DNA of 64,000 bases, taken from the NCBI GenBank assembly GCA_024613925.1, contig GCA_024613925.1_4713.1; one strand, written 5' to 3'. Both the position numbers and the translations under genes were made by a program. Shown here one piece after another: positions 35,467 through 42,068 of this stretch (positions are counted from its first letter, which is position 1; every line of letters starts with the position of its first letter). The DNA comes from a phage. Below the pieces are notes generated by a model. The model saw only the letters and a program-made list of their open reading frames with translations, was not told where the DNA came from and did not search any database.

Positions 35467-36597
35467 TTATTTAGCGTCGTTAAAGTAAATATCAACAGCT
35501 CGTTCCGTTGCGTAGAGGAGACCAAGATTCACAGTCCCAACCACTTCCGGTGAACCGATGATACGGTTAGCGATACTGGTGCCACTGAAGATAGCATCAA
35601 GGGTGTGCCCGTCTTCGGTTTTGTTCACACCATGACCCACGGAAGAGACAACGGATTTCGCTTGTGCTGCGAAGGTACCTTTATCACCCATCCCCGCACC
35701 AAGGTCGTAACGCATGAAAATACGGATAGCGATCTGGTTCTCGCCTAACGGATTGCCGTCTATTCTCACGTTACTATTGTTGATACGCCCTGTTGCTGCC
35801 TCGTTGAGTTTCAGTTCCTTAACGCGTTTAGCTCGCGCTTTATCCGCTTCACCGACGAGCGCCGCCATGGTTTCACTCATATCCTCAATCTGAGCACGGT
35901 ACAGTACATCGATCTGTACAACTTCACCATGAACGTCAGCACGTGGGTTATACTGACTCATACGACGTAATGCTTCAACGGCTTCCTGACTCTCATCACT
36001 CAGATCGGTTGCAATCGGTTCTTCCAGTGTTGCAAGAATCGTTCGTGGTTCAACGTGATCACCGATTTTCACAAGACCACGAATATTGAGATGGGCGTCA
36101 ACGATGAGCGTACGGCTCTTAATCGATGGTGTTACGAGACGATCGGCAAGATTGTCGAAGATATACGAACTGTCCTCGTGCGTCTCTGGAATATCCAGAA
36201 TACCGACAAGAGACAGCACACCTGCGCGCCAAACAACCTGGCCTGGGTTCCACCAATCGCGTTTGAAATAAAGACGATGGAAAACCACCACATCCTGATC
36301 CTTAACGCGATCCCCGACTTTATAATCGGTAATGAGATCGTGAGGATAATACTTACCTGGCCCTTTCCCGATTATCGTACCGAGCTGGAAAACCTCTTCC
36401 CCTAACTCTGGATCGTCGTATTGTATCGTAAGCGCAGTTTTGGTGACCTTCTTAACAACACCATCGCCTTGGGCGGCGGCCGCGAAGAGTTTACCAACAC
36501 GATGCGCGATAACAGTCTCACCGCCGGTGCGCCACGGTTGTACATCGTAACCCTCAGCGGCAATCATGCGGTTGTGCTGTATACCTATAAATACCAA
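35467..36597 (-). CDS. RNA polymerase beta-like subunit, downstream exon (catalytic double-psi barrel region); true exon probably begins near 36545
   Basis: GMGDKGTFAAQAKSVVSSV (beta GDKxxxRHGNKG region) and DGHTLDAIFSGTSIANRIIG (beta [21 protein letters not shown]-like); N-terminal TGGETVIAHRVGK...GDGVVKKV resembles beta VGTGMERAVAVDSG...GGVVQYV; no RBS before the apparent TTG/ATG start. Confidence 0.6.
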   Translation of the reverse strand: MVFIGIQHNRMIAAEGYDVQPWRTGGETVIAHRVGKLFAAAAQGDGVVKKVTKTALTIQYDDPELGEEVFQLGTIIGKGPGKYYPHDLITDYKVGDRVKDQDVVVFHRLYFKRDWWNPGQVVWRAGVLSLVGILDIPETHEDSSYIFDNLADRLVTPSIKSRTLIVDAHLNIRGLVKIGDHVEPRTILATLEEPIATDLSDESQEAVEALRRMSQYNPRADVHGEVVQIDVLYRAQIEDMSETMAALVGEADKARAKRVKELKLNEAATGRINNSNVRIDGNPLGENQIAIRIFMRYDLGAGMGDKGTFAAQAKSVVSSVGHGVNKTEDGHTLDAIFSGTSIANRIIGSPEVVGTVNLGLLYATERAVDIYFNDAK

Positions 36598-37090
36598 TCT
36601 CTTGGGCGAATTTAGTTCTTATTCAACATAATCGTACTATTACCAGAATAAGACTGAGATTAGATTGTTCAGATAAGGTCGTTAATCTTATCCCGGAGGC
36701 GACGATAGGCACATCACCTCCCGCTTGCGCTCTCACGCAAGAGCAGACTATATCACATCTCGTTTCAAACGGTGCTTCTTCAGCACCTCAACGAGAGTTC
36801 ACTTCTTCCCAGCGCATCCAGCGCCATTCTCTTATCCAAGGAGAATGCCTCACTCGAGGGGTACAGGGGGATGAATCCCTTAGTCGTTGAACCTTTACCT
36901 TAGAACGCTTCACAGCGATCCTTAGGTACTTGGCTGCGGATTGTCCTTAAGCTATTATCTGTTTTTATAACCATACCGTCTTTCTTTTCAGAATCCGTTT
37001 TGGTCGATAACAGCGATGGATGTCTTCGCAATTCAGTGAATCTCATCTACATGTCGCCACATAGACGGACCCTGCTATTAAAAGCGTTAA
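36545..37090 (-). ncRNA. group I self-splicing intron (no intron ORF); boundaries approximate
   Basis: On minus strand in order: P-like AATTGCGAAG (37024-37033), Q AATCCGCAGCC (36932-36942), R GTTCAACGACTA (36881-36892), S GATATAGTCTG (36744-36754); flanking ORFs together give a contiguous RNAP beta sequence. Confidence 0.6.
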
Positions 37091-40299: not shown

Positions 40300-41946
40300 T
40301 TAGGCTCCACGAGGTCCCGTTAAGTTGCGTAATAGGAACGCAACCGTATCGTAACCAATATCAATGTTGAATTTATTTTTACCACTTACCCAGAAAGCTC
40401 GCTTCTTGTGCGAGTTGGTAATTTCGTCAATAGCTTCCATGGAATAAAGAACGTTAACCGAGACCGTATCACCGTCGAAGTCCGCCCCGAGGCCAGCTAG
40501 AAACACCTGGCCGACTTGGGTCGTTTCTACAAATGACGCTTTCAATGACCAATCTGGGTATTCCCATGCCATATACCGATCGCCTTCTAACGGTTGCCAA
40601 TCGACACCGAGTTCTCTTCTTGGCTTCGTGTTAACTGTCGTCCGCACATAGCAGGTTAACGGTATAACTGATTGCATTCCCGATACTGGATAACGTGTCA
40701 CCATCGCACCGAGTTTATTCCAAAGATGATAACCGCTCAGATAAACCAATTCGCAGTATGTAACCGGATGAACATTAGCGCCAGGTTTGTTCAGCATCTC
40801 TGGGGGTATTTCACTCATGCCACGGAATAACCGAAACGAATCGTTGTTCACATAGACGAGGCAAAGATAACGCCCATTAACCATGATAGGTTCGTTACGC
40901 ACACCAGGATCGCTTAGCGTGTTCAGTAAACGTTCGATACCGTCCCACGTTGTAAAGTCATCGATGGTATCTGGGTCTAACGTGACGCGTTCACGTTCCA
41001 TCGTTTCGGTATCGATAAGCTCAGCTTCAGTAACATCACGAACAAATATTTCCTGCAAAATCCCCGTACGTAATGCGTGCTGTGTGATAGGAAGAGCAGC
41101 CTTGCTCATCTGATATAGACCAAGTTGTACTGATGTACACGAAGTCTGGTTCGGTGAGCCGAGAACCTCTGTAGTTGGGATGACAGCCGAAATAACGTTA
41201 CGGGTTGAGTTCCAAACGCGACGTGAACCGAACTTCCCTTGGAAGATCCCTTTCTTACCTTGGAACATATCCAACAACAAAGCGTAGATATCGTTGAATG
41301 TTCTCTGTAAGCTCCAGCGCTGGCCGTCGTAAACGGGATCGGAATAATCTTTTAATCCATCAGGGACGGTGTTAGAAATTGCAAGGAAACGACGATACAA
41401 CTCCGTGATTTCTTGCTCGCTTTCATACCCGCCTTCTTTTACTTCTATTTCACGTAAGCCTGCAGGTAATACCAGTAAGTGACGGGTCATCGCTTTGAAC
41501 ATGTTCTCTTCGACAACTTTAATTCGTAGCTCTCGTTGAGCTGAACCCGTTGAAACGAACTTGATATCCGCGACGTGTTGTGCAAAGAACCCGTATCCTG
41601 TTTGTCCTGTTAACGCATCAGACGCAACGAAGTCGCGTTGTTCAGGATCCCAACGAGCATACGCCTTTCCCGACATGATATCACCATAGAGGTGTTTTAG
41701 TCGAATGAGGCGGTCGTAAATGACAGGGTGCAGGATTTCAACCTTGCATTCAATCACCGCAAATCGACGGTCTCGATCTTCACTACCTGCACTACCAAAG
41801 ATGGTGTAAGAATAGAAACCATCATCGTGGAAATTACCGGTGCTTGGGTCACGAATGCTCATGCTCGTGATCTTGGGGAGAAAACGTAACTGCTGTTTAT
41901 CGAGGTGTAAAATACTAATGTTAAACGGCTCTCTGACTTTAGCCAT
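40300..41946 (-). CDS. RNA polymerase beta-prime-like subunit, N-terminal catalytic part (548 aa from ATG 41946)
   Basis: GADFDGDTVSVNVLYSMEA matches the universal beta-prime NADFDGDQMAVHVPLTLEA; GKFGSRRVWNSTRNVIS resembles [20 protein letters not shown] RBS before ATG 41946. Confidence 0.7.
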   Translation of the reverse strand: MAKVREPFNISILHLDKQQLRFLPKITSMSIRDPSTGNFHDDGFYSYTIFGSAGSEDRDRRFAVIECKVEILHPVIYDRLIRLKHLYGDIMSGKAYARWDPEQRDFVASDALTGQTGYGFFAQHVADIKFVSTGSAQRELRIKVVEENMFKAMTRHLLVLPAGLREIEVKEGGYESEQEITELYRRFLAISNTVPDGLKDYSDPVYDGQRWSLQRTFNDIYALLLDMFQGKKGIFQGKFGSRRVWNSTRNVISAVIPTTEVLGSPNQTSCTSVQLGLYQMSKAALPITQHALRTGILQEIFVRDVTEAELIDTETMERERVTLDPDTIDDFTTWDGIERLLNTLSDPGVRNEPIMVNGRYLCLVYVNNDSFRLFRGMSEIPPEMLNKPGANVHPVTYCELVYLSGYHLWNKLGAMVTRYPVSGMQSVIPLTCYVRTTVNTKPRRELGVDWQPLEGDRYMAWEYPDWSLKASFVETTQVGQVFLAGLGADFDGDTVSVNVLYSMEAIDEITNSHKKRAFWVSGKNKFNIDIGYDTVAFLLRNLTGPRGA

Positions 41947-42068
41947 GGAGACACTCCTCTTTACCACCACCGGCTGCGGCGGTATCATCTGAACACACGA
42001 GAGACGTAATGGGTGATGGCGTCACCCATCGCTTCCTTGCCTGATGCCAGGAAGTTATTAGGTTACGT

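Follow-up and report, generated by a model that had tools for sequence, protein, structure and literature searches.

A predicted virion RNA polymerase gene cluster of a Goslar-like jumbo phage and an endonuclease-less group I intron at its beta DD site

A 64,000-nucleotide (nt) stretch of phage DNA (NCBI GenBank assembly GCA_024613925.1, contig GCA_024613925.1_4713.1; hereafter the window) carries, in region 41988..35467, three long minus-strand open reading frames (ORF1, ORF2 and ORF3 of the ORF list). Here, they are read, with a high degree of confidence, as the core of a gene cluster for the virion RNA polymerase (vRNAP) of a Goslar-like phage, whose beta gene holds at its DD site a mobile group I intron in a form that lacks the endonuclease. 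A preliminary description of the same DNA had proposed split, PhiKZ-type multisubunit RNA polymerase (RNAP) genes at these positions, which family profiles and PHROG assignments bear out. The window is ~94% identical in nucleotide sequence to Escherichia phage vB_EcoM_Goslar (NC_048170), a nucleus-forming jumbo phage of E. coli (chimallivirus, Chimalliviridae), and the genes are collinear. The alignment is broken at two places in the RNAP region: window 37104..36596 has no counterpart in Goslar, whose gp207 (1448 amino acids, aa) is uninterrupted there, and around 40520..40479 Goslar has 2085 extra bases against ~40 in the window. The features of the region are as follows (^ marks a splice junction or insertion point throughout).

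40300..41946, minus strand: ORF1, beta-prime N-terminal subunit (beta-prime N) gene, 548 aa, Goslar gp205 / PhiKZ gp180 type; reading frame open from 41988
37090..40296, minus strand: beta exon 1, 1069 codons (ORF2, 40296..37087 including the TAA), Goslar gp207 / PhiKZ gp178 type
36607..37089, minus strand: ORF-less group I intron, 483 nt, Rfam RF00028
35467..36606, minus strand: beta exon 2, 379 codons plus stop; contains ORF3 as listed (36597..35467)
37059..37070, minus strand: proposed internal guide sequence, located by inspection
36594..36663, minus strand: intron 3' extension and exon 2 pairing region, from RNAfold and comparison with relatives

Beta-prime N-terminal and large beta genes

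ORF1 most likely starts at the ATG at 41946, which has a Shine-Dalgarno sequence (AGAGGAG) at 41960..41954 and corresponds to the annotated Goslar start; an upstream ATG at 41988 is an unlikely start. The protein carries the catalytic Asp-triad motif GADFDGDTVSVNVLYSMEA, in which GADFDGD occupies aa 487-493 of 548 and DFDGD aa 489-493, and D489, D491, G492 and D493 are invariant (39 homologues). It also carries GKKGIFQGKFGSRRVWNSTRNVIS, aligned by hhalign to a segment of E. coli beta-prime; the same alignment places residues 139-253 on E. coli RpoC 218-356 (E 6.7e-7) and takes in the segment that the preliminary description had noted. ORF1 matches phrog_2986 end to end (E 7.5e-178). A single-sequence PDB search found the beta-prime N subunit of the AR9 non-virion RNA polymerase (nvRNAP; E 4e-4), with DFDGD aligned to DYDGD, and a 39-sequence family profile found the same subunit at E 6.7e-14; the 78 PDB sequences matched by the profile were all beta-prime or cyanobacterial gamma, and nothing else. 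Structure prediction agrees: an AlphaFold2 (AF2) model (predicted local distance difference test score, pLDDT, 79) matched AR9 beta-prime N in Foldseek at E 1.6e-16, the first of 586 matches at E <= 1e-3, followed by cyanobacterial gamma, plastid RpoC1 and bacterial beta-prime.

Profile, Foldseek and hhalign results together place ORF1 as the N-terminal half of beta-prime, ending just past the double-psi barrel. The end lies 55 residues beyond the third Asp, confirming the earlier estimate of about 50. Cyanobacterial gamma and plastid RpoC1 likewise end shortly past the catalytic double-psi barrel, and the beta-prime split site of such phage enzymes has been noted to coincide with the cyanobacterial one (PMC7598289). 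The cellular enzymes retain alpha, omega and sigma, whereas none of these is recognisable in the phage enzyme, and phage beta-prime, unlike the gamma and RpoC1 arrangement, is divided into three pieces. One ORF1 homologue (P0025, 92% identical to the window's beta-prime N) comes from a 238-kb contig of a Salmonella enterica Enteritidis assembly, which suggests a Goslar-like phage within, or contaminating, that sample.

The beta ATG lies at 40296, three nt after the ORF1 stop. Exon 1 ends in ...AADRDD and meets a TAA at 37089..37087; the frame is open again from 36606 as far as the stop at 35469..35467, with exon 2 beginning PKRLVFIGIQ and containing ED and GDK motifs and a barrel-like segment. 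Joining the exons (...GAT GAT^CCC AAG AGA TTG..., encoding ...DRDD^PKR...) gives a predicted product of 1448 aa, the length of Goslar gp207. The junction reads DD(P/A/G/M)KR in eleven homologues, DDPKR being most frequent. Of the 1424 positions of phrog_3148, ORF2 covers 2-1050 (E 1e-290) and exon 2 covers 1051-1420, and a full beta of ~1450 aa spanning the whole family profile is obtained only after removal of 37089..36607. ORF2 and ORF3 are, judged by their sequences, two halves of one gene.

A beta family profile built from phage records matched Thermus thermophilus RpoB (E 1.7e-9) in three collinear blocks, namely the CPVETPEG region, the EHDDANR region and GDK...NPLGVPSRM. The DETNP...CPVETPEG-like block of exon 1 aligns with T. 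thermophilus beta 396-465, and hidden Markov model (HMM) matches of exon 2 fall at 537-656 and 822-880. The profile was also aligned by hhalign to E. coli RpoB 660-1109 (E 2.2e-4), including the ED pair; since this span ends at 1109, the large beta subunit lacks the last ~230 residues of beta and would cover the equivalent of RpoB to about residue 1110. A beta-like, intron-interrupted second gene had been proposed in the preliminary description, and the RpoB blocks, the Rfam match described below and the uninterrupted Goslar gp207 all confirm it. The CPIETPEG-like, EHDDANR-like and GDK motifs listed there reappear in the collinear blocks; the FIINGTERV-like motif was recovered by no search. 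Around aa 285-400 (window 39440-39100), beta contains a long acidic, low-complexity insertion rich in D/E, and the N-terminal region of ~560 aa surrounding it had no detectable RpoB similarity in the searches run.

Chance motif matches in ORFs unrelated to RNA polymerase were also considered. Pfam returned no meaningful match for any of the three ORFs, nor for the gp196-like and gp210-like proteins described below, and neither ORF2 nor ORF3, searched as a single sequence, found anything relevant in PDB. A homologue search with the spliced beta returned only three proteins, and an exact-protein look-up of ORF2 matched no contig. The profile, fold and PHROG evidence (PHROG E 1e-120 to 1e-290) is overwhelming, and chance is already refuted as an explanation: profile searches find homology to both RpoC and RpoB, and DFDGD is no isolated coincidence.

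The group I intron and its splice sites

The Rfam model Intron_gpI (RF00028) matches at 37091..36724 with 56.2 bits against a gathering threshold of 50 (E 1.9e-12, model positions 1-253), and is the sole Rfam match in the 64-kb window. The intron begins with the in-frame TAA and ends in ...TTCG, with the omega-G at 36607. P3 (37040-37035 / 36803-36798), P7 (~36887-36878 / 36754-36745) and P9.2 (36694-36666) are recognisable, and the fold of the whole intron has a z-score of -5.2. No ORF was found within it, the longest stop-free stretch on the sense strand being 54 codons. A U precedes the 5' splice site, G is the final intron nt, and ligation is in frame (...GAU GAU^UAA...UUCG^CCC AAG...), as in other group I introns. 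By inspection, an internal guide sequence, GUCCGUCUAUGU (37070..37059), may pair with the 5' exon end, AUAGAGAUGAU (37100..37090), forming a putative P1 of 10 bp with one bulged C, one A-G mismatch and a G-U pair at the splice site. At exon position -10, one related contig (L018) has C in place of U, so that a G-U pair of this putative helix becomes G-C.

The intron is predicted to be self-splicing. It has a T4-td-like architecture and interrupts beta directly after two conserved Asp codons. Since it starts with a stop codon, unspliced RNA would give only a truncated protein, and splicing would ligate ...GAU GAU to CCC AAG AGA..., restoring DDPKR. A 5' splice site after the first GAT was rejected, as a conserved Asp would be lost.

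G36607 is assigned as the omega-G because exon ligation at the td-like position would not keep the frame. That position, after ...CUCAG, was rejected since it would shift the frame and bring in a TAA after 13 codons, and 3' sites after G36601 or G36595 were rejected for deleting the conserved PKR. The 3' extension is present with other sequence and its own hairpin in three other contigs (L017, L018 and L023), and all end in T(T/C)CG^CC(C/A/G) AAG, the Pro codon varying synonymously. In RNAfold predictions the intron tail, CUAAUCUC (36663..36656), pairs with exon 2 nt +6..+13, GAGAUUGG (36601..36594), closing a loop; the 3' splice site lies within this loop, as does a hairpin (36653-36646 / 36624-36617). 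Three of the eight pairs of this helix are changed on both sides (AAUCUC/GAGAUU in the window vs AGACGC/GCGUCU in L017, L018 and L023), the exon changes being synonymous, and 90.6% of cells are paired vs 22-44% in slid controls. The conserved splice context, the tail-exon covariation and the purifying selection on exon 2 support G36607 as the omega-G. An exact 24-mer of the intron tail was absent from IMG/VR.

The alternative that the intron no longer splices, leaving beta as a pseudogene or as two polypeptides (1069 aa, and ~370 aa from an internal start), is improbable. Splits are indeed tolerated by RNAPs of this kind and have been proposed to originate from introns (PMC7598289); the 3' end is atypically long, the terminal UAAUG of td-like introns is UAAUC here, and ORF3 as listed has a TTG start at 36597. 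However, this TTG is the sole candidate start, has AAGAG only 1 nt upstream and would lose the conserved PKR, and no in-frame ATG occurs before exon 2 codon 11. The ribozyme core is complete and above the Rfam threshold, the splice context is kept in the three other contigs, and the compensatory changes preserve the intron-exon helix. Beta is 98.7% identical in aa to Goslar gp207 (exon 1, 94.6% in nt). Of the codon differences in exon 1, 146 are synonymous and 15 non-synonymous, against 48 and 4 in exon 2, and these counts indicate strong purifying selection on both exons. Finally, in both 201phi2-1 and PhiPA3 an intron occupies exactly this site of a gene that is functional and essential. Removal of the intron by splicing is the reading kept below.

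Core elements P3-P9.2 are common to this intron, the PhiPA3 and 201phi2-1 introns, the Goslar beta-prime intron described below and the T-even td introns. The td intron resembles the window intron in architecture, with P7.1/P7.2, P9.1 and P9.2, and likewise starts with UAA; it differs in lying in another host gene (thymidylate synthase), in carrying I-TevI (GIY-YIG) rather than an HNH endonuclease and in splicing 5 nt after CUGAACA. Over 32 nt (window 36666-36697, intron nt 393-424, the P9.2 hairpin and flank), the sequence is 100% identical to the td introns of >200 T4-like genomes, while the remainder is ~47% identical to td. This may reflect intron exchange between phages that share E. coli, or strong structural constraint.

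The virion enzyme and its remaining subunits

The window proteins are 92-99% identical in aa to Goslar gp205 and gp207. A 2026 preprint (10.64898/2026.04.21.720040) reports the full set of five Goslar vRNAP subunits (gp78, gp196, gp205, gp207 and gp210) in virions, gp205 having been detected in purified virions by LC-MS/MS. As a vRNAP marker, gp196-GFP has been used, and it is injected with the DNA. PhiKZ gp180 and gp178 are vRNAP subunits, and the 201phi2-1 vRNAP beta protein was found in virions. Orthology therefore supports assignment of the window genes to the virion-packaged enzyme; the preliminary description had favoured that enzyme from a gp181-like neighbour, and both the Goslar virion proteins and synteny with PhiKZ gp180/gp178/gp181 uphold it.

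Assignment to the nvRNAP instead, which is made early and serves middle and late transcription, is very improbable. Both enzymes are built of split beta and beta-prime fragments, and the top PDB matches are to an nvRNAP (AR9), but this is because no vRNAP structure is among the PDB matches. The genes are orthologous to the Goslar virion proteins gp205 and gp207 and homologous to PhiKZ vRNAP gp180 and gp178; they also sit among virion and tail genes and adjoin a gp181-like lysozyme protein. That neighbour, on the plus strand at 42075-48857, is a 2260-aa ORF with a lysozyme-like C-terminal region, divergent from the RNAP genes, and is the counterpart of Goslar gp204 and of the cell-puncturing tail protein PhiPA3 gp213 / 201phi2-1 gp276. 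The order of beta after beta-prime N, divergent from a giant lysozyme-domain tail protein, is common to Goslar, PhiPA3 and 201phi2-1. With Goslar, the window shares gene order, orientation, terminator, the gp204 lysozyme/tail neighbour and downstream gp209/gp210.

Three further features belong with the cluster.

35441..35466, strand not assigned: GC-rich hairpin directly after the beta stop codon, likely operon terminator
32898..33608, minus strand: candidate gene for the C-terminal-most beta-prime subunit, 236 aa, Goslar gp210 / PhiKZ gp176 / SPN3US gp244 type
55439..56113, minus strand: beta C-terminal subunit gene, 224 aa, Goslar gp196 / PhiKZ gp149 / SPN3US gp218 type

The hairpin gave terminator-like scan matches on both strands, and a terminator is annotated at the equivalent place in Goslar. 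A scan for sigma-70 promoters gave counts equal to the shuffled expectation and is uninformative, since the phage uses its own polymerases.

The product of 55439..56113 is 100% identical in aa to Goslar gp196 and matches phrog_3233 (E 1e-65). Proteins of this type (PhiKZ gp149, SPN3US gp218) have been termed beta C (PMC5105663), and the PhiPA3 homologue of gp196 is annotated as similar to PhiKZ gp149. In a single hhalign comparison, the gp196 family aligned with E. coli RpoB 1160-1312, directly past the end of the large beta (E 0.0069). The top 50 Foldseek matches of an AF2 model (pLDDT 66.7) were all RNAP beta chains, each with E >= 0.097; PDB searches by single sequence and by family profile gave nothing relevant. 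The product of 32898..33608 is 100% identical in aa to Goslar gp210 and matches phrog_2926 ('virion structural protein'), separate from phrog_2986. The last beta-prime segment has been proposed for this type (PhiKZ gp176, SPN3US gp244) from weak HMM evidence and genetics (PMC5105663), and on that literature the gp210-like protein is a candidate beta-prime C. With gp196-like and gp210-like genes in the window, the earlier statement that the C-terminal parts of beta-prime and beta are absent from it is wrong for two of three pieces. The third piece, a middle beta-prime subunit of the Goslar gp78 type, was not found: in the Goslar region that matches the window, the genes annotated as RNAP subunits are gp196, gp205 and gp207 only.

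In the proposed organization, two adjacent genes on the same strand, closed by a terminator hairpin, would encode beta-prime N, with the DFDGD magnesium-binding loop and an end like that of cyanobacterial gamma, and then the large beta. To these would be added three small subunits, of which beta C and beta-prime C are encoded in the window, the third being the middle piece of beta-prime. From the literature, the assembled polymerase would be sigma-independent and alpha-less, packaged in the capsid and injected with the DNA for early-gene transcription.

Several points weigh against this reading as a whole, beside the Pfam results. Splicing is a prediction from sequence. The proposed P1 contains a bulge and a mismatch, and the intron runs 59 nt past the conserved CUGAACA, where relatives splice ~5 nt after the motif; given this unusual extension of about 50 nt beyond the end of related introns, homology and the reading frame, and not a canonical P9.0/P10 model, define the 3' splice site. 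The covariation of the tail-exon helix is suggestive but no proof, as it comes from two lineages only. For the gp210-like protein as beta-prime C and the gp196-like protein as beta C, the grounds are mainly the literature and weak profile or fold signals.

One further match lies in the neighbouring gp204-like gene. A sub-threshold Rfam ribosomal S15 leader (25.6-32.1 bits vs a gathering threshold of 39.5) is recurrent in three Goslar-like loci, antisense to that gene, and is probably spurious; its window position, ~42923-43028, was inferred from L001 1973-2078, L020 and L021 2419-2524.

Homing site and intron polymorphism among Goslar-like phages

Presence of the intron had been recognised in the preliminary description; that its insertion point is an already characterised homing site had not. 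The insertion follows GAT GAT, the equivalent of E. coli RpoB D674-D675, and its nt position is identical in the window, PhiPA3, 201phi2-1 and contigs L016, L017, L018 and L023. By direct comparison, the window, PhiPA3 and 201phi2-1 all have GATGAT^ on the 5' side and an intron ending in ...CG^, and a metagenomic homologue (P0003, contig L016) also ends in ...TDD, followed by an HNH_3 ORF. In PhiPA3 (gp211/gp210/gp209), the same vRNAP beta gene is interrupted at the same point (RpoB D675 / PhiKZ gp178 D1072) by an intron of like architecture with conserved P7, P9 and P9.2 elements. PhiPA3 gp210, an HNH nicking endonuclease within that group I intron, nicks the intron-less PhiKZ gene at the DD site (Birkholz et al. 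2024, PMC11620839). The PhiPA3 intron is 1352 nt long with its endonuclease gene, whereas the window intron lacks one, is ~55% identical, has the extra 3' extension and resides in a phage of an E. coli host. The intron of 201phi2-1 (gp273/274) is also ORF-less and at the identical DD site (Rfam 87.4 bits); it is shorter (336 nt), ~45% identical to the window intron and without the 3' extension.

IMG/VR and a scan of metagenomes gave four further Goslar-like genomes. The occupancy of two sites, beta DD and beta-prime D^FDGD, compares as follows.

Goslar: beta DD empty; beta-prime D^FDGD with a 2044-nt intron carrying gp206 (HNH_3 + NUMOD1)
UViG_3300011560 (L017): beta DD with an intron carrying a 403-aa HNH ORF; beta-prime D^FDGD empty
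UViG_3300045988: beta DD with an ORF-less intron; beta-prime D^FDGD with an ORF-less 510-nt intron (64.9 bits)
OGZS01000006: beta DD with an ORF-less intron
Window: beta DD with an ORF-less intron; beta-prime D^FDGD empty

Taken together, the two sites occur in four different combinations in the five genomes. The ORF-less relatives of the window intron are in contigs L018 and L023. The ORF of the L017 intron is 36% identical to PhiPA3 gp210 (E 3e-56). In that contig (IMGVR_UViG_3300011560_000001, 1418-3000), the 5' end of the intron (P1-P2) differs and the 3' end of the ORF overlaps the ribozyme core.

At the second site, Goslar has what the window is without. Its intron (L001 4522-6565, NC_048170 ~211753-213796; Rfam 67.7 bits) sits inside the catalytic motif, between D489 and F490 in window numbering, with the counterpart position at ~40480 in the window, and encodes gp206, a 490-aa HNH_3/NUMOD1 endonuclease. 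The Goslar reference annotation is in error here, showing gp205 truncated and gp206 as 'hypothetical' rather than as an intron-encoded HNH endonuclease, and we flag both entries. In another jumbo phage, Vibrio phage vB_pir03 (L008 2806-3185), a group I intron (54.7 bits) separates two ORFs that both bear the annotation RNA polymerase beta-prime subunit; over 85 nt, the P3-P6 region of this intron and the window intron are 79% identical.

The exons beside both sites are locally diverged. At the beta site, identity to Goslar falls to 73-75% within ~-200..+100 nt vs ~95% elsewhere in the gene, most differences being at third codon positions. The beta-prime N gene is 89% identical to Goslar in nt overall and 96-99% over its first 750 nt; identity is 70-89% over the ~750 nt (window 41196-40450) upstream of the Goslar D^FDGD intron site and 100% downstream, a patch that looks like a recombination or co-conversion tract. 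Divergence at both sites is consistent with homing accompanied by co-conversion. On this reading, the window intron is a mobile intron in its form without endonuclease: in a near-identical relative it bears an HNH nicking endonuclease related to PhiPA3 gp210, which targets exactly this site, and the intron would therefore have arrived by homing, together with co-conversion of flanking exon. The occupied site should render the allele resistant to such an endonuclease.

A broader proposal is possible, though we hold it only tentatively: that the vRNAP genes of Goslar-like phages carry introns, 'armed' or 'disarmed', as a natural system of two sites, with the ORF-less intron kept as immunity and the 3' splice site set by the tail-exon helix. 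Each of beta DD and beta-prime D^FDGD could then be empty, ORF-less or HNH-bearing. If so, the ORF-less intron would immunise the essential beta gene against the nicking endonuclease (PhiPA3 gp210-like) of co-infecting relatives, the empty beta-prime site of the window would still be vulnerable to Goslar gp206, and the non-canonical helix between the tail and exon 2 (+6..+13) would specify a remote 3' splice site and constrain synonymous codon choice. As leads, both the polymorphism and the helix between tail and exon are of modest interest.

The split vRNAP and its mobile introns have both been described, so the main finding carries no new principle: the PhiKZ-type vRNAP and the DD-site group I intron are known in kind, and the specific intron allele in Goslar-like coliphages is new. 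It places the homing site studied in Pseudomonas phages (PhiPA3 vs PhiKZ) in play among Goslar-like phages of E. coli as well, with all stages of the homing cycle (empty site, intron with endonuclease, intron without endonuclease) represented among near-identical genomes. These phages would offer a tractable E. coli system for intron-mediated interference competition.

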